From: a virus
Lineage: Duplodnaviria; Heunggongvirae; Uroviricota; Caudoviricetes
Length of the DNA: 7,115 bases
IMG/VR virus record: IMGVR_UViG_2728369593_000018
Reading direction: 5' to 3' (one strand)
The notes beneath the pieces are model-generated. The model worked only from the letters and a program-made list of their open reading frames with translations, was not told where the DNA came from and made no database searches. Each line of letters opens with the position of its first letter. Position 1 is the stretch's first letter. Position numbers and translations under genes: made by a program. Below are positions 312 through 7,115 of the stretch, piece by piece.

Positions 312-443
312 AGGCTATAAACCGACTAACAACTAAATACTGAAGATTTAAATCAGAAACGATTTTTATTAAATCCTTAACCGGAGGGATTCCTGCACCC
401 TCAAATCATCAGGAGGCCGCCCGAAAGGGCGGTGGAGATAATA

Positions 444-644
444 ATGGGAATAACTAAAGAACGATTGTTGGAAATAGCAAACCTTAGTGATTGGGCATTA
501 AGTGATGAGAGAATTGTTTCTCCTCATGCTTATGAGTCAGTTACAAGTATAGAAATAACAACAATGGCTAGAATGCTGCTTGGTTATTTCAAAATAGAAA
601 ATAAAAACAGATGGATAGTAATGTTGATATATGTGAGATTTTAG
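444..644 (+). CDS. small hypothetical protein (66 aa)
   Basis: ATG at 444 preceded by GGAG at 435-438; the ORF overlaps the start of the downstream Q-like gene by 34 nt. AT-rich, no recognisable motif, and analogous in position to small ORFs upstream of Q in DLP12-type phages. Confidence 0.3.
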   Translation: MGITKERLLEIANLSDWALSDERIVSPHAYESVTSIEITTMARMLLGYFKIENKNRWIVMLIYVRF

Positions 645-964
645 ACGATTGGGGGGCTTGGGTTGTGGCTGGTAATAGTTCTATTGATTGGCAGGAAATA
701 GCTGATAAATATAAAAATGTTGTTCCTCATGGTAAAAAATCACGTCGTCAGTGCAGCAATGATGAAGGGCGAATTATTGACATTAGTATCCTTAGGTTAG
801 AAAGATATAAGCAACAAGAATATGAGTTAATTGTTGCTCATTTCGTGATTGGTTTATCTCTTCGTGCTATTGCAAAGCAACAAGGATGTTCAGATGGAAC
901 AATTCGTAAAAGATTGCAAAAAGCCTTAGGTTTTTTGACTGGATATATAGCAATTACCAGTTAA
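611..964 (+). CDS. Q-family late-gene antiterminator homologue (QuuD / DLP12-type small Q), 117 aa
   Basis: The translation shares the motifs I recall from E. coli QuuD (127 aa): WGAW near the N-terminus, SRRQCSNDE against SRPQCCDDD, and LIVAHFVIGLSLRAIAKQQGCSDGTIRKRLQKALG against [35 protein letters not shown]. The gene is AT-rich like the surrounding cassette. Confidence 0.6.
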   Translation: MDSNVDICEILDDWGAWVVAGNSSIDWQEIADKYKNVVPHGKKSRRQCSNDEGRIIDISILRLERYKQQEYELIVAHFVIGLSLRAIAKQQGCSDGTIRKRLQKALGFLTGYIAITS

Positions 965-1602
965 GAGTCAGCGGTTTTTTTACCAGTGTAATGGTATAAG
1001 GATACTCCCATGTGTCTTACATGATATGGAAGCGCTGTTGCTGGATGCTTTGTGATACTCTTAAAGCGGAGGGGAGAGCCTTCCGCTTCAATTTCTGCGT
1101 CCGAAACGGTCGTAGAGAAAAATTCTTTCCATTCATTGAATTTTACTGCTGATTTGTCAGACTTTATATAAATTAGAATTCCTCCATGATCGTCACGTGA
1201 CGTACCCGTGCCGTAACGTTCGGTTAGCTGAATCCAGCCATTATGAATAGATTTGGGGCCTCTCCATAATTTTGCTTCACCGATCCATTCGAATTTTCCG
1301 AATTGATGTTTAACTAATAAATCAACGTGACCGCCATGTTGAGTATCATGTTCAACATCATAAAACCTACCTTTCAGGAAATTTTTGATCGACGCTGTTA
1401 GCTCGTCCTCTCCCCACTTAGCATCTTGATAGAAGTGTTTGTCATTTTCTAAATTCTGAATAGCGTCGTCTAAATCTTCATAGAGTTGCTTTACAAAAAT
1501 ATTTTTGTCTGCAGCTAATTTTCTTTGAACCATTCCCCTAAATTCAGGATCCATTCTAATTAATGATTGAAGGTCTGCAGTACAGATGTTTACATCACTC
1601 AT
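961..1602 (-). CDS. hypothetical protein, 213 aa; candidate PD-(D/E)xK-fold nuclease
   Basis: Long ORF in AT-rich DNA. Start chosen at the internal ATG (complement of 1600-1602), which follows GGAGAG on the minus strand. Protein segment ...YDVEHDTQHGGHVDLLVKHQFGKFEWIGEAKLW... has a hydrophobic strand ending in D followed about 15 residues later by E-x-K, the classic restriction-endonuclease-fold arrangement. Its stop overlaps the stop of the convergent Q-like gene (TTAA at 961-964). Confidence 0.6.
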   Translation of the reverse strand: MSDVNICTADLQSLIRMDPEFRGMVQRKLAADKNIFVKQLYEDLDDAIQNLENDKHFYQDAKWGEDELTASIKNFLKGRFYDVEHDTQHGGHVDLLVKHQFGKFEWIGEAKLWRGPKSIHNGWIQLTERYGTGTSRDDHGGILIYIKSDKSAVKFNEWKEFFSTTVSDAEIEAEGSPLRFKSITKHPATALPYHVRHMGVSLYHYTGKKTADS

Positions 1603-1815
1603 GCAGACTCTCCAAAAGACTCGAAGGAGTAAAGTATGGATAAAGATACTGGCTAAAATTATCAACCAATTCGCCAGTTTCTGGATGGTAAAAACTTCCT
1701 AGTGTCTAAAGCATAGGAAATAAGATCATCTTCAACTGGTATTGGTTCTTCCGTTAAATTATCAATGTATTGAAAATGCATATCCAATAGATGTGCTTTA
1801 TAGCTAGATAAATAA

Positions 1816-2025
1816 TCAAGTTGCTTTTATTAGCAGGATATAGTCATCTTTCGTATCAGTTAGATAGGTTAAACCATTGATAAGGGTTTTGTATGTAAAG
1901 TGATTGATATTTTTAGCATCTTTACTAACCAGAAAAAGAAAAAGATCACGACACACACTGCGAACAGGATCATTAAAATCCTGCTCTATTTGCGTGATAA
2001 TGTCGTGATATATACTCTTTTTCAT
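1816..2025 (-). CDS. hypothetical small protein (69 aa), possibly a remnant of a decayed gene
   Basis: ORF on the same strand as the flanking cassette genes. Its ATG overlaps the TGA of an upstream 40-codon ORF in ATGA fashion, and the RBS is weak (AGG). No recognisable motif. Confidence 0.3.
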   Translation of the reverse strand: MKKSIYHDIITQIEQDFNDPVRSVCRDLFLFLVSKDAKNINHFTYKTLINGLTYLTDTKDDYILLIKAT

Positions 2026-2334
2026 TTATGGCCTGATGATCTCGCTCTTCTTTTCTCTTCACAGGACTTAACAGAATCCAATATTTTTTCAACAATAAAT
2101 ATAATCGAATCAATGTTGTTACAGTTCTTCGCTAATTGCTTCATGCAACCTAATTCTAGGATTATCAAGCATTGTCCTTTTTCCTGGTATATTAACTCTA
2201 CTGATAAAATATGTGAAGAACTTTGTGGTAAATCCCAAATTTTTCCAACTTAAACTTTGTCAATATTGGGCTTGCGGACTCTCCACTATGATGGTAAACA
2301 TCTTGACGCAAACACTTTTGACTTGGTTTGAGTT

Positions 2335-3111
2335 TTAAAGAACTTGTATTGCCATCTGAGGTGATAAAAGATACATGAGAAATTCTGCCATCACTTTTTC
2401 GTAAAGATCTTGTATTGAACCAAATAATTCAAGAGGATTGTTTAAAATAACGCCAGCTTCTTTTTTTATAAATTTAGCCACAAGGTATTGTTGAGGCTGT
2501 GATTCACTTCTTGGAAGGATAGATAAATCAATCGTAAGAATTAATATTTTTTCTGCAGGCATTAGCATGATGGTATTAAAGCATTGCGTGACTTGGCGTG
2601 TTTTGCATTTTATTTCTCCACCATTAGCACGTAATTCCATACCCACATCGCTAAGATGTGTTGGGTCAAGCTCTATCACTTCAGTGTAATACGCTTTGGA
2701 TAAAAAAACAGCAGTGTCAATTTGTTTATCACGAATGATATCTTGACATAGTTCAGCAAAATGCAGCTCAGTATCAGCAACTAACAGCTCCTCTCTGGAT
2801 AAAGGAATTGGGTATTTTTCTGAGAAGGGGCTATTGTCCTTTTTCTGATTTGTGAAAATTGTTTGTAATTTTGCTACGTCTTCATCGGTGATTCTATAAA
2901 TAGAAAGTAATCGATTCCCGCTAAAAATTAAACCTTTCCAGAAATCGTCGATTCTGTCTTTTAGGTCGGGATTATGCTGAACTACACTATTTACACGTTC
3001 AATAAAAAGGGGTAATCCTTGGGCCGTTACACCCAGTGATGAACCAAGAAGCTTACGGGTGTTGCGCCAGCCAAAGCGTGAATTGATGTTTTTTACTGTT
3101 TGCTCAAGCAT
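2335..3111 (-). CDS. hypothetical protein, 258 aa, no family recognised
   Basis: Long ORF in AT-rich DNA. ATG at complement of 3109-3111 is preceded by AAGGA with 7-nt spacing on the minus strand; the track's 3117 start is an in-frame GTG two codons upstream. Leading gene of the minus-strand cassette. Confidence 0.7.
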   Translation of the reverse strand: MLEQTVKNINSRFGWRNTRKLLGSSLGVTAQGLPLFIERVNSVVQHNPDLKDRIDDFWKGLIFSGNRLLSIYRITDEDVAKLQTIFTNQKKDNSPFSEKYPIPLSREELLVADTELHFAELCQDIIRDKQIDTAVFLSKAYYTEVIELDPTHLSDVGMELRANGGEIKCKTRQVTQCFNTIMLMPAEKILILTIDLSILPRSESQPQQYLVAKFIKKEAGVILNNPLELFGSIQDLYEKVMAEFLMYLLSPQMAIQVL

Positions 3112-3164
3112 TAACACTTCCTTAATTTTCCCTTAACAATTTAGGGTGCTAAACTTTTTTGCGC

Positions 3165-3193
3165 AGTTTACATAAAAAAATGTGCGTACGCAA
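3165..3193 (-). promoter_or_regulatory. candidate sigma70 promoter for the 258-aa gene, overlapped by a perfect 10-bp palindrome TGCGTACGCA (putative operator)
   Basis: On the minus strand: TTGCGT, 17-nt spacer, TAAACT, about 45 nt upstream of the ATG. The palindrome at 3183-3192 overlaps the -35 element and extends as an imperfect inverted repeat. Confidence 0.3.
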
Positions 3194-3252
3194 AAACTAT
3201 CTAACATGAATGAGCTTTAACCGGGAAATTTGTATATGTTGTGAGCATAAAG

Positions 3253-3282
3253 TTGGCTGAGAAATCTAAAAACGGGTAGAAT
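3253..3282 (+). promoter_or_regulatory. candidate sigma70 promoter for the hok transcript
   Basis: TTGGCT (3253-3258), 18-nt spacer, TAGAAT (3277-3282). This would give a leader of roughly 170 nt before the hok ATG, consistent with the long structured leaders of hok mRNAs. Confidence 0.3.
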
Positions 3283-3459
3283 GACTGCGGGTGCTTGAGG
3301 TCTATCTGTCTCAGGCATGAACACCAAAAGGCAGATAGAGAAAAGCCCCAGTTAACATTACGCGTCGGCAAGACGACTTAACATTAATCTGAGGCCATAT
3401 CTATGCTCTACACACGTAGGTTAGCCTCTTACGTGCCGAAAGGCAAGGAGAAGCAGGCT

Positions 3460-3615
3460 ATGAAGCAGCAAAAGGCGATGTTAATCGCCCTGATCGTCAT
3501 CTGTTTAACCGTCATAATGACGGCACTGGTAACGAGGAAAGACCTCTGCGAGGTACGAATCCGAACCGGCCAGACGGAGGTCGCTGTCTTCACAGCTTAC
3601 GAACCTGAGGAGTAA
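3460..3615 (+). CDS. hokD: Hok/Gef-family type I toxin (HokD/RelF-like), 51 aa
   Basis: Translation MKQQKAMLIALIVICLTVIMTALVTRKDLCEVRIRTGQTEVAVFTAYEPEE is essentially the K-12 HokD sequence as I recall it (one conservative difference). AGGAG lies 9 nt upstream of the ATG and a rho-independent terminator follows. Confidence 0.9.
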   Translation: MKQQKAMLIALIVICLTVIMTALVTRKDLCEVRIRTGQTEVAVFTAYEPEE

Positions 3616-3682
3616 GAGACCAGGCGGGGGAGAATCCCTCGCCACCTCTGATGTGTCAGGCATCCTCAACGCACCCGCACTT

Positions 3683-3709
3683 AACCCGCTTCGGCGGGTT
3701 TTGTTTTTT
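3683..3709 (+). terminator. rho-independent terminator downstream of hok
   Basis: Stem AACCCGC / GCGGGTT with TTCG loop, followed by TTTTGTTTTTT. Confidence 0.6.
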
Positions 3710-3781
3710 CCTGGCATTCTGGTTTACAATTCGCACGCCAGCCTGAACAACTGGCACCTGCTGTGCCAGCAGAGACAACCG

Positions 3782-4060
3782 ATGGCGCACGATACCAAAT
3801 TACACAATTCTGATGATTCTGCCGTCTTTGCCAGCAGGCACGGGCGGCGTTCCCGCACTTTCAAATCTGACTGGTTCCAGCATCCCCCATGCACTGAAGA
3901 ACAGGCCGAGTGGCTAATTCAGTGCTACCGCAGACACGGATACGAGATTAAGAAAGCCCTCAGCCTCGATTATCGTCACTGGATAATCTCCGTCAGGCTT
4001 CCTTACTCCGAACGACCACCGCGTCCGTCCCGCACATTCCAGCAACGCATCTGGAGGTAA
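3782..4060 (+). CDS. small hypothetical protein (92 aa) in the position of rem between hokD and ydfU in Qin
   Basis: ORF MAHDTKLHNSDDSAVFASRHGRRSRTF...; the upstream part of the track ORF (from 3653) overlaps the hok terminator, so the internal ATG at 3782 is preferred. Its stop overlaps the RBS and GTG start of the next gene. Assignment rests on synteny; the sequence itself is not recognised. Confidence 0.45.
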   Translation: MAHDTKLHNSDDSAVFASRHGRRSRTFKSDWFQHPPCTEEQAEWLIQCYRRHGYEIKKALSLDYRHWIISVRLPYSERPPRPSRTFQQRIWR

Positions 4061-4061
4061 C

Positions 4062-5111
4062 GTGCGGGTATTACTTCGACCTGTTCTGGTACCGGAACTC
4101 GGGCTGGTGATCGTTAAGCCGGGCCGTGAATCCATGCCGGTATTCCACAATACCCGGGTACTGGTGGAGCCGGAACCGAAAAGCATGCGTAATCTGCCGT
4201 CCGGGGTCGTTCCTGCCGTTCGCCAGCCGCTGGCGGAGGATAAATCATTACTGCCATTTTTCAGCGACGAACGAGTGATTCGTGCTGCTGGTGGCGCTGG
4301 CGCATTGTCTGACTGGTTACTGCGCCATGTTAAATCCTGCCAGTGGCCACACGGTGATTATCACCACAGTGAAACCGTCATTCACCGTTATGGTACCGGC
4401 GCAATGGTGTTGTGCTGGCACTGCGACAACCAGCTGCGCGACCAGACCTCCGAATCACTCGGGCAACTTGCTCACCAAAACCTGTCTGCATGGATGATTG
4501 ACGTCATACGCCATGCAATGAATGGCTCGCAGGAACGGGAATTATCGCTGGCTGAATTATCCTGGTGGGCGGTCCGCAATCAGGTGGCGGACGCGCTACC
4601 GGAAGCGGTATTACGTCGTTCGCTGGGGTTGCGTGCGGAAAAAATCCGCTCAATGTACCGTGAAAGCGACATCGTACCGGGAGAGCAGACCGCCACCAGC
4701 ATACTGAAACAGCGCACAAAAAATCTTGCGCCGCTGCCTCACGCCTACCAGCAACAGAACCCACCACAGGAAAAGACGGTGGTCAGCATTGCCGTTGATC
4801 CTGAGTCTCCGGAATCTTTCATGAAACGACCTAAACGTCGCCGCTGGGTTAACGAGAAATACACACGCTGGGTGAAGACACAGCCGTGTGCGTGTTGTGG
4901 TAAGCCAGCCGACGATCCCCATCACCTGATTGGTCATGGTCAGGGCGGAATGGGGACAAAATCTCACGATATTTTCACGCTACCGCTGTGTCGGGAGCAT
5001 CACAACGAGCTTCATGCGGATCCGCTGGCGTTCGAAGAAAAGCATGGTTCTCAGGTTGATTTAATTTTTCGTTTTCTTGATCACGCCTTTGCAACTGGCG
5101 TGCTTGGGTAA
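4062..5111 (+). CDS. ydfU: DUF968-type phage protein with C-terminal HNH-like Cys/His motif (YdfU-like, NinG position)
   Basis: 349-aa ORF; GTG start at 4062 with GGAGG 4 nt upstream. C-terminal CACCGKPADDPHHLIGHGQGGMGTKSHDIFTLPLCREHHNELH resembles the Cys/His nuclease motif of NinG/DUF968 proteins. Lies between the Rem-position ORF and rusA, as in lambdoid nin regions. Confidence 0.75.
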   Translation: MRVLLRPVLVPELGLVIVKPGRESMPVFHNTRVLVEPEPKSMRNLPSGVVPAVRQPLAEDKSLLPFFSDERVIRAAGGAGALSDWLLRHVKSCQWPHGDYHHSETVIHRYGTGAMVLCWHCDNQLRDQTSESLGQLAHQNLSAWMIDVIRHAMNGSQERELSLAELSWWAVRNQVADALPEAVLRRSLGLRAEKIRSMYRESDIVPGEQTATSILKQRTKNLAPLPHAYQQQNPPQEKTVVSIAVDPESPESFMKRPKRRRWVNEKYTRWVKTQPCACCGKPADDPHHLIGHGQGGMGTKSHDIFTLPLCREHHNELHADPLAFEEKHGSQVDLIFRFLDHAFATGVLG

Positions 5112-5123
5112 AAGAGGTGACTG

Positions 5124-5483
5124 ATGCTCATAGATTTGGTTTTACCTTACCCGCCGACGGTGAACACTTACTGGCGACGCCGTGGCAGCACATATTTTGT
5201 ATCAAAAGTCGGTGAGCGTTATCGCCGTGATGTGGCGCTTATTGTTCGCCAGCAGCAACTGAAATTAAACCTGTCCGGAAGGCCGGCAATAGAAATTATT
5301 GCAGAGCCACCGGATAAGCGCCGTCGTGACCTGGACAATATCCTGAAGGCACCACTGGATGTACTGACGCATGCGGGGCTGCTCATAGACGACGAGCAGT
5401 TTGATGAAATTAATATTGTGCGCGGTCAGCTTGTTCCTGGTGGGCGGTTGGGGATAAAAATCACAGAACTGGAGTATGCATGA
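5124..5483 (+). CDS. rusA: RusA-family Holliday junction resolvase
   Basis: 119-aa ORF with AGAGG RBS; LPYPPTVNTYWRRRG and PDKRRRDLDNILKAPLDVL match the RusA signature as recalled (PDRRRRDLDNLQKA in E. coli RusA). Its stop overlaps the next ATG (ATGA). Confidence 0.9.
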   Translation: MLIDLVLPYPPTVNTYWRRRGSTYFVSKVGERYRRDVALIVRQQQLKLNLSGRPAIEIIAEPPDKRRRDLDNILKAPLDVLTHAGLLIDDEQFDEINIVRGQLVPGGRLGIKITELEYA

Positions 5484-6169
5484 ATAACCAGTATTTACAG
5501 TTTGTTCGTGAGCAACTCATGATTGCCACCGCCGATTTGAGTGGATCAACAAAAGGGCAGCTTGAGGCCTGGCAGGAGAATGCCATGTTTGATACAGGGC
5601 GTTACAGGCGTAAAAAAATCCGGTACCGCGATGAAGTGACTGGAAAAATGATAACGCGGGATAATCCACCAATCCCGGGAAAGCAATCGCTGGCGAAGGG
5701 GGCGTCAATTCCTCTCGTCAGTCCGGTTGAGTTTTTGACATCATCGTGGCGGCGGGCTGTTCTGTCTCTTGAAGAACATCATAAAGCCTGGTTGTTGTGG
5801 TGTTACAGCGGGAGTATTTGTTGGGAATATCAGATCGCGATAACACAGTGGGCGTGGAATGAATTTAATACTCAATCCGGTACCAGAAAAATTGCTGGGA
5901 AAACGCAGGAACGCCTGAAAAAATTAATCTGGCTGGCGGCGCAGGCAGTAAAAGCAGAACTTTTTGGTGGGGAAGGTTATGAATATCAGGAGCTGGCATT
6001 ACTGGCGGGAGTGACAACTAAAAACTGGTCCAAAACATTTACTCGTCACTGGGTTGCAATGAAACACATTTTTCACCGACTGGATAGTGAGGCTTTATTA
6101 TTTGTAATGAGAACACGTTCAAAACAAAAGGCGGCATTTTCAAAGCAAAGTGTTGCAAAAGTAGATTGA
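5480..6169 (+). CDS. putative late-gene antiterminator Q (large, phage-82 / QuuQ-like type), 229 aa
   Basis: Position immediately after rusA and immediately before a promoter, short leader, terminator and tRNA cluster, as for Q in Stx phages and in Qin (ydfU then quuQ). GGAG lies 5 nt upstream of the ATG. The call rests on synteny and size; the sequence is not recognised from memory. Confidence 0.5.
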   Translation: MNNQYLQFVREQLMIATADLSGSTKGQLEAWQENAMFDTGRYRRKKIRYRDEVTGKMITRDNPPIPGKQSLAKGASIPLVSPVEFLTSSWRRAVLSLEEHHKAWLLWCYSGSICWEYQIAITQWAWNEFNTQSGTRKIAGKTQERLKKLIWLAAQAVKAELFGGEGYEYQELALLAGVTTKNWSKTFTRHWVAMKHIFHRLDSEALLFVMRTRSKQKAAFSKQSVAKVD

Positions 6170-6356: not shown

Positions 6357-6366
6357 CCTGCGCCCG

Positions 6367-6441
6367 GCCCTTTAGCTCAGTGGTGAGAGCGAGCGACTCA
6401 TAATCGCCAGGTCGCTGGTTCAAATCCAGCAAGGGCCACCA
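6367..6441 (+). tRNA. ileZ: tRNA-Ile2-like (anticodon CAU; ileZ/ileX-type), with a 6-nt T-loop
   Basis: Perfect acceptor stem GGCCCTT / AAGGGCC, D-arm GCTC-AGTGGTGA-GAGC, anticodon loop CTCATAA, encoded CCA. Closely resembles E. coli ileX as recalled, except the T-loop reads TCAAAT (6 nt) where ileX has TTCAAGT. Confidence 0.8.
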
Positions 6442-6442
6442 A

Positions 6443-6518
6443 CCGCCACTAGCCATCAGGAAAGAGCGTCAACCCTTTAAGTTGAGTGTGCGAGGTTCGA
6501 GTCCCCGGTGGTGGTCCA
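6443..6518 (+). tRNA. tRNA-like sequence in the argN position; degenerate D-stem and unusual anticodon loop CCTTTAA (possible pseudo-tRNA)
   Basis: Acceptor stem CCGCCAC / GTGGTGG (one G-U), T-arm CGAGG-TTCGAGT-CCCCG (one mismatch), anticodon stem TCAAC / GTTGA, encoded CCA. The D-stem pairs only 2 of 4 positions and position 33 is C rather than the near-universal U; anticodon would read UUU. Confidence 0.45.
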
Positions 6519-6533
6519 TTATCGGTATTTCTG

Positions 6534-6607
6534 CGTTGTTAGCTCAGCAGGACAGAGCAATTGCCTTCTAAGCAATCGGTCACTGGTTCGACTCCAGTAC
6601 AACGCGC
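6534..6607 (+). tRNA. argO: tRNA-Arg (anticodon UCU; argO/argU-type)
   Basis: Perfect acceptor stem GCGTTGT / ACAACGC, D-arm GCTC-AGCAGGACA-GAGC, anticodon loop CTTCTAA, T-arm ACTGG-TTCGACT-CCAGT. The 3' CCA is not encoded. Confidence 0.85.
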
Positions 6608-6736: not shown

Positions 6737-6755
6737 CTGTCTCTTATACACAAAT
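6737..6755 (+). repeat. IS50-like terminal inverted repeat (left end)
   Basis: CTGTCTCTTATACACAAAT compared with the 19-bp Tn5 end sequences; immediately followed by a 9-bp stem hairpin CAAATCCCC-ACCC-GGGGATTTG. Confidence 0.7.
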
Positions 6756-6901
6756 CCCCACCCGGGGATTTGTGATGTCTGTCAGTCTGCTTTAGGGGGA
6801 CTCTTTCCATCCGGTAGTTTCCTTCCTCCCCGGCAGCGATTTTTTGAACTTTTTCCTCACCCGTTGATCTTCTCTTATATTTCATTTTCTTCGGGTCTGT
6901 T

Positions 6902-7115
6902 ATGGTACTTTCTGATTGTTATTCATGGGCTAACGAGCAGTTTGGACATGCCCGTCTCGGTGATCCGCGTCGTACACGACGCCTTGTGTCACTGGCCTCT
7001 TCTCTCGCTCAGCATGCAGGTCTTTCTATTGTGAAATCATCCCAGTCCCTGCTCAGGTTGAAGGTGCGTACCGCCTGATACGTAACCCGTCTGTGTCCCC
7101 GCAAGCCATTGCCGA
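6902..7115 (+). pseudogene. IS50-like transposase N-terminal region with an apparent single-base frameshift (3' partial)
   Basis: Frame A gives MVLSDCYSWANEQFGHARLGDPRRTRRLVSLASSLAQHAGLSIVKSSQS, matching Tn5 Tnp ...DWAKSVFSSAALGDPRRTARLVNVAAQLAKYSGKSITISS..., then hits TGA at 7076-7078. The homology continues in another frame as PAQVEGAYRLIRNPSVSPQAIA, matching Tn5 ...EAMQEGAYRFIRNPNVSAEAI. The shift maps to the C-run near 7046-7050. Confidence 0.6.

Follow-up and report, generated by a model that had tools for sequence, protein, structure and literature searches.

A probable hok/mok/sok type I toxin-antitoxin module of the hokD/hokW subfamily in a lambdoid prophage

Toxin-antitoxin modules of the hok/mok/sok kind are common in the lambdoid prophages of Escherichia coli, and the enrichment of hok in prophages has already been reported by recent surveys (bioRxiv 10.1101/2025.08.07.668861). 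The paradigm for their control is the plasmid-borne hok/sok (parB) locus of R1, in which a translational activator (tac) element, a leader hairpin, a GCCCC box, the mok Shine-Dalgarno (SD) sequence, mok, the hok SD sequence AAGGAG and a 3′ fold-back inhibition (fbi) element follow one another, and the Sok promoter (TTGCGC-17-TATCCT) lies within the 5′ region of mok. Activation of R1 hok through trimming of the 3′ end of its mRNA is a published pathway (PMC9841398).

Two E. coli K-12 loci and one phage locus provide the remaining points of reference. K-12 hokC (gef)/mokC/sokC is chromosomal, lies outside prophages and is flanked by IS186; mokC is in frame with hokC at an offset of 57 nt, sokC starts 9 nt inside mokC, and its -10 hexamer is rather degenerate (CACTCT). 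K-12 hokD (relF) belongs to the relBEF operon of the Qin prophage and is co-transcribed with relBE (PMC3598666). The hokW-mokW-sokW module of the Stx2 phage 933W and the Sakai prophage Sp5 (AF125520) is an experimentally demonstrated type I system, dependent on RNase III and Hfq, in which HokW is toxic, sokW expressed from its own promoter neutralises it, and both the hokW and sokW RNAs are detected on northern blots (PMC8621323).

Here we describe a locus at about 3253-3709 of the window, that is, of the whole 7,115-nt stretch of viral DNA that was analysed (IMG/VR record IMGVR_UViG_2728369593_000018). Its sequence features indicate that it is very probably a complete hok/mok/sok type I module of the hokD/hokW subfamily. 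As an object it is already known: both the module and its prophage setting are typical of the family, and hokW-sokW, which is near-identical to it, was characterised earlier. Presence, position and predicted pairing of all of its elements were established by sequence analysis and the homologue has been validated experimentally, while transcript ends, processing, toxicity and biological role would be those of the family.

Architecture and predicted folding of the hok mRNA

A first-pass annotation of this DNA had taken the locus for a self-contained type I module of the hok/sok type, in which hok has a promoter, a leader, a ribosome site and a terminator of its own and a possible antisense promoter lies inside the leader. 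That description holds, and every motif on which it drew can be read in the sequence at the position given for it (Table 1). The order of elements is that of R1, with which the DNA is alignable only in short stretches. Over the module the window and 933W share 92.8% DNA identity, and mokW, hokW and sokW are annotated at homologous positions in 933W, which also has the in-frame 70-aa mok, the Sok promoter hexamers and spacer, the tac and fbi sequences and the lambdoid prophage setting. The two differ at several bases of the Sok 5′ tail and at a few residues of Hok, and also in placement, the 933W module being near attR whereas that of the window lies in the nin/Q region before rem-DUF968-rusA-Q. 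Homology between them ends just past fbi, and 933W does not have the terminator seen in the window. An unrelated Rfam match to sRNA-Xcc1 (69.1 bits), with no relation to the hok locus, is present in phage 933W (L001, 447-535).

Table 1. Features of the hok locus and of its surroundings in the window (promoter, RNA and folding elements of the locus are predictions)
Feature	Coordinates	Strand	Details
Candidate hok promoter	3253-3282	+	-35 TTGGCT 3253-3258, -10 TAGAAT 3277-3282; consensus scan
Predicted full-length hok mRNA	3289-3708	+	about 420 nt; both ends inferred
tac (translational activator) element	3289-3300	+	GGGUGCUUGAGG; pairs with 3664-3676 in the full-length fold
First leader hairpin	3301-3339	+	11-bp stem; arms 3301-3311 and 3329-3339
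ucb / anti-SD box	3343-3349	+	AAGCCCC; pairs with the mok SD region (full-length mRNA) or with tac (3′-shortened mRNA)
mok Shine-Dalgarno	3389-3392	+	GAGG; 10 nt before the mok ATG
mok reading frame	3403-3615	+	70 aa, in frame with hok (N-terminally extended Hok); ORF and geometry of homologues
hok Shine-Dalgarno	3445-3450	+	AAGGAG, read from the sequence; 9 nt before the hok ATG at 3460
hok toxin gene	3460-3615	+	51 aa; Pfam PF01848 HOK_GEF, PHROG 251
fbi (fold-back inhibition) element	3664-3676	+	CCUCAACGCACCC; twelve pairs with tac, one bulged C
Intrinsic terminator of hok mRNA	3683-3709	+	terminator scan
Sok promoter	3418-3446	-	-35 TTGCCT 3446-3441, 17-nt spacer, -10 TAACCT 3423-3418
Predicted Sok antisense RNA	3341-3411	-	about 71 nt; transferred from the sokW annotation in AF125520
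Q-type antiterminator gene	611-964		PF06530
Low-GC (33-38%) cargo block, three genes	961-3117	-	intact copies: L002, 2261-4411 (-)
rem-like ORF	3782-4060		right of hok
DUF968/YdfU gene	4062-5111		right of hok
rusA	5124-5483		right of hok
Second Q gene	5480-6169		PF06323

The toxin is assigned with little ambiguity to the small Hok/Gef membrane proteins. It scores 82.3 bits against PF01848 (cut-off 22), falls in PHROG 251 ('MokW-like host killing') and is identical to K-12 HokD at 50 of 51 positions (98%; V20M), and its identity to R1 Hok is about 44% (PMC8621323). The strong ribosome-binding site claimed for hok is there, as AAGGAG. The upstream overlapping mok frame, which the first-pass annotation had not listed, has a ribosome site of its own and is arranged like the annotated mokW (933W) and mokC (K-12), including the 57-nt offset to hok found in K-12; in R1 the two genes are read in different frames. 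Translational coupling of hok to mok is putative. The Tyr47 codon of hok (TAC) is part of TACGAA at 3598-3603, a TadA A-to-I editing motif that is conserved here.

The proposed hok promoter, TTGGCT-18-TAGAAT, was also reported by the consensus scan, as one of three matches in 3100-3800 against 0.8 expected. Across six related loci its -10 hexamer is invariant and its -35 region is semi-conserved as GTTGGC or GTTTGC. The spacer is 18 nt in the window and 17 nt in the closest relative, E. coli E2348/69. We infer that the mRNA starts at 3289, a site 7 nt past the -10 hexamer that is also position 1 of the Rfam model RF01794 ('sok'). The leader (3289-3465) matches this model on the plus strand with 108.9 bits (threshold 59), as compared with 117.1 bits in E2348/69 and 113.5 bits in 933W; since RF01794 covers the hok mRNA from its 5′ end through the hok AUG and is matched here on the plus strand, the match marks the hok leader/sok locus as a whole and not antisense transcription. 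At the 3′ end, the claim that hok has its own terminator is borne out by a scan that finds a 7-bp GC-rich stem (3683-3700) followed by a T run.

An 8-bp inverted repeat had been noted in the leader, with TCTATCTG at 3301-3308 and CAGATAGA at 3332-3339. Both arms are in place, but the 8 bp are only the core of what is really an 11-bp stem, which corresponds to the first hairpin of RF01794. One compensatory change supports it in a six-locus alignment, pair 3304:3336 being A-U in the window and U-A in R1, hokB and hokE; covariation was used for this hairpin only because MAFFT mis-registers the region of the second leader stem.

The first-pass annotation had suggested folding the leader in search of fold-back inhibition elements. 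An fbi element does exist, but in the 3′ untranslated region and not in the leader. The full-length fold (3289-3705) has a minimum free energy of -167.7 kcal/mol (z = -7.6 against 100 shuffles), and the long-range 5′-3′ pairing between tac and fbi is predicted in both the minimum-free-energy and the centroid fold. The fbi sequence is conserved in K-12 hokD, 933W and E2348/69, the bases paired between tac and fbi show compensatory differences between R1 and the window, and R1-type hok, folded in the same way, gives its established tac/fbi pairing, as 933W likewise gives a tac/fbi pairing. The GCCCC box (3345-3349), invariant in the six hok loci, masks the mok SD in the full-length fold; the SD is unpaired once the mRNA ends at 3640. 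In silico shortening of the mRNA to an end at or before 3655 shifts tac onto the ucb box (3343-3349) and frees the mok SD, so that both the anti-SD masking and the tac/ucb refolding appear in the shortening series, the 3′ processing itself being putative. Because the shortened R1 and 933W mRNAs adopt as their minimum-free-energy fold a short 5′ metastable hairpin and not the tac/ucb pairing, the switch in the window is suggestive and falls short of proof; minimum-free-energy folds of 400-nt RNAs are in any case indicative only.

By analogy with R1, the module would work as follows. From a constitutive promoter (-10 TAGAAT) a stable mRNA would be transcribed that begins near 3289 and measures about 420 nt. 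In the full-length molecule tac would pair with fbi and the GCCCC box would mask the mok ribosome site, locking the mRNA against both translation and Sok binding. Slow trimming from the 3′ end would remove fbi, whereupon tac would move to the GCCCC box and expose the mok site, and translation of mok (from 3403) would then drive that of the 51-aa membrane toxin. A short and unstable Sok RNA, made from TTGCCT-17-TAACCT with its start near 3411, would pair with the trimmed mRNA around the start of mok, leading to a block of translation and to RNase III cleavage. Were Sok synthesis to stop, through loss of the element or upon prophage induction, Hok would be produced.

Single-base indels in the locus and in the rest of the window

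The closest complete genome is that of E. coli O127:H6 E2348/69, which is 99.0% identical to the window over 3200-3720 and whose toxin is named "type I toxin-antitoxin system toxin HokD" in RefSeq. The differences between the two are mostly isolated 1-nt insertions or deletions, with few substitutions (432-3300, also at 3270, 3301 and 3367-3378). Four private 1-nt indels fall in the 521-nt hok locus, affecting the spacer of the hok promoter, the position that follows tac and the top of the predicted Sok hairpin, and about ten more in the 2.3-kb cargo block split three genes that are intact in E2348/69 (197, 142 and 363 aa). Frameshifts result in each of the three cargo genes and in the Q-like gene upstream; the hok and mok frames contain no indel.

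Megablast comparison with the complete genomes of E. coli found the additional T of position 3301 in 0 of 1398 matching records, and the 3350-3399 variant matched none of 5426 genomes; the leader variant with the extra T also had no exact match in a collection with only one genome for each species, which is uninformative. Relative to E2348/69 the indels lower the Rfam score by about 8 bits, and those at the top of the Sok hairpin change its predicted stability from -29.9 to -23.9 kcal/mol (about 6 kcal/mol).

These observations bear on whether the locus could have hok/sok architecture and yet be a decayed, non-functional relic, in the manner of several chromosomal hok loci of K-12, with spacing and structure damaged by the indels. 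The four private changes, the absence of the two leader variants from the genomes searched, the lower Rfam score and the frameshifted neighbours all point that way, as does earlier work in which chromosomal hokA, hokB and hokC did not give post-segregational killing, as cited in a recent preprint (bioRxiv 10.1101/2025.08.07.668861). We nevertheless consider decay unlikely: the hok and mok frames are intact and their coding region is free of indels, the tac/fbi and ucb/SD pairings, both promoters and the Sok hairpin are all kept, and an 18-nt spacer remains in the functional range. Moreover, indels occur at similar density across the whole window and substitutions are rare, which looks more like sequencing error than selective decay. 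Sequencing error is the simplest reading, the pattern suggesting either an error-prone source or a decaying prophage, and the 18-nt promoter spacer and the first T of the inverted repeat (3301) are probably artefacts of private 1-nt insertions. With so many private indels, exact spacings and reading frames in other parts of the window should also be interpreted with caution.

The proposed antisense promoter and the predicted Sok RNA

The first-pass annotation had placed a promoter, TTGCCT-17-TAACCT, on the opposite strand inside the leader. Its hexamers agree with the consensus at 7 of 12 positions, the consensus promoter scan did not report the site, and sites at least as good number 418 in the window and 22 within the 457 nt of the locus. 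With 418 equal sites the promoter is not above chance on sequence alone, and its support therefore comes from homology. It coincides exactly with the sokW promoter of 933W/Sp5, positions 3416-3450 of the window being the same as in 933W base for base, both hexamers and the spacer included. The TTG of its -35 hexamer is invariant when the window is aligned with hokW, hokC, hokB, hokE and R1-type hok.

The homologous promoter has been dissected by mutation. Takada et al. made a "promoter-less" sokW with primer YO-421 (CCGGCTCGCCTCTTACG...), which changes TAGGTTA to CCGGCTC (PMC8621323); the replaced TAGGTTA is the complement of TAACCTA and is exactly the -10 element proposed for the window. The sokW -10 mutant lost protection against HokW, and sokW provided in trans restored it (PMC8621323). 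The northern probe used for sokW in the same study ends at the equivalent of window position 3411.

An antisense RNA starting at about 3410 had been anticipated, and the predicted start, close to 3411, agrees with the annotated 5′ end of sokW. It lies 7 nt past the -10 hexamer and overlaps mok by 9 nt, just as K-12 sokC overlaps mokC. The predicted RNA spans the mok SD and the mok AUG and is expected to fold into a 15-nt free 5′ tail, a long terminator-type hairpin and a UUUU end, like sokW and K-12 sokC. Sequence and homology together thus point to a cis-encoded antisense Sok.

Were hok a stand-alone toxin without antisense control, restrained by mRNA folding or subject to read-through from a phage promoter, TTGCCT-17-TAACCT would be a chance match, as its weak hexamers, its 22 equals within the locus and the silence of the scan allow, but this is extremely improbable because the hexamers, spacer and downstream geometry are those of sokW – whose RNA is detected and whose -10 mutation abolished protection – the geometry also equals that of annotated K-12 sokC, the -35 TTG is kept in six diverged loci, and the antisense sequence downstream forms a terminator-type hairpin followed by a U run. 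With hok under the control of Sok, toxicity of Hok and its neutralisation by Sok would be expected from the 93%-identical hokW-sokW.

Distribution, relBE and the prophage setting

The first-pass annotation had described hok as uncoupled from relBE. The absence of relBE is confirmed, since tblastn with K-12 RelB and RelE finds no similarity anywhere in the window (best E 0.48), and the sequence upstream of hok is the hok leader and not relE, so this is not a relBEF arrangement. The possibility that relBE is present elsewhere in the window was rejected on the same search. The framing as an uncoupling is nonetheless the wrong way round, the stand-alone form being the commoner and the K-12 form truncated. 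A search for the full-leader form, in which at least 80% of a 521-nt query (3200-3720) was to be covered so that the leader is necessarily included, finds it in 3802 of 5426 complete E. coli genomes, many of them with several copies; the K-12 relE-hokD junction (201-nt query across the junction, covered to at least 80%) is found in 1167.

K-12 hokD shares with the window the fbi element, the terminator and the downstream rem-ydfU-Q context. In our alignment homology starts only at about 3445, at the hok ribosome site, and is near-identical through fbi and the terminator; relE and relB take the place of the hok promoter, tac, the leader hairpins, the mok start, the Sok gene and most of the Sok promoter, and the K-12 Qin region has no Rfam sok match. 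Because the autonomous form is commoner and homology begins only at the ribosome site, K-12 relBE-hokD reads as a derived, truncated exception and the autonomous form as ancestral-looking.

The window is a piece of a lambdoid prophage with a close relative in E2348/69, and the hok locus lies in its nin/Q region. Two different Q-type genes, matching PF06530 and PF06323, flank the block formed by the cargo genes, hok, rem, DUF968 and rusA; in the window a frameshift divides the first of them into two parts, 432-644 and 611-964. The three cargo proteins have no Pfam, NCBIfam or significant PADLOC match and correspond only to PHROGs 9664, 11490 and 12777, to which no function is assigned. Their three-gene cassette sits between the Q-like gene and hok, and 6 of the 25 top-listed genome matches extend into this flank. 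High-identity homology to most other hok-bearing prophages begins at 3276, between the -35 and -10 hexamers of the hok promoter, and the genes to the left of that position vary between elements, which may have an IS3 element there, a small ORF on the minus strand or genes for other hypothetical proteins. The sequence immediately upstream of hok looks like a variable cargo slot.

The right-hand part of the window holds two further features. ARAGORN calls three tRNAs (CAT, TTT, TCT) in a cluster at 6366-6607, of which Rfam, at the gathering threshold, and the RefSeq annotation of E2348/69 give only the first (annotated as tRNA-Ile) and the third (tRNA-Arg); the tRNA between them (6443-6518) is possibly degenerate. 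The window ends in an IS4-family element (6737-7115) with a Tn5-like end (CTGTCTCTTATACACAAATC) and the N-terminus of an IS4-family transposase from 6902 on the plus strand, with an apparent frameshift near 7060. In E2348/69 an ISEc13-family element occupies exactly this junction, but it presents its other (IE-like) end and its transposase is encoded on the opposite strand, which means either an inverted orientation at one and the same site or a different copy.

A broader reading, in which lambdoid prophages would have a hypervariable cargo slot whose right-hand border is fixed and marked by hok/sok, is quite improbable. If it were true, the addiction module could help to keep the adjoining cargo, and the cargo flank could set the strength of the hok promoter through the -35 hexamer that it supplies. 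A published survey found that hok is not enriched near known defence systems.

The discovery value of the locus is small and its practical value lies in annotation, RefSeq naming only the hokD coding sequence at such loci and leaving out mok and Sok. The name "hokD" itself, taken from K-12, wrongly suggests that linkage to relBE is the norm, whereas the counts (3802 versus 1167) say the opposite. As for the prophages that carry it, the module may possibly serve in prophage retention, in helping lysis at induction, as reported for hokW-sokW, or in phage exclusion.
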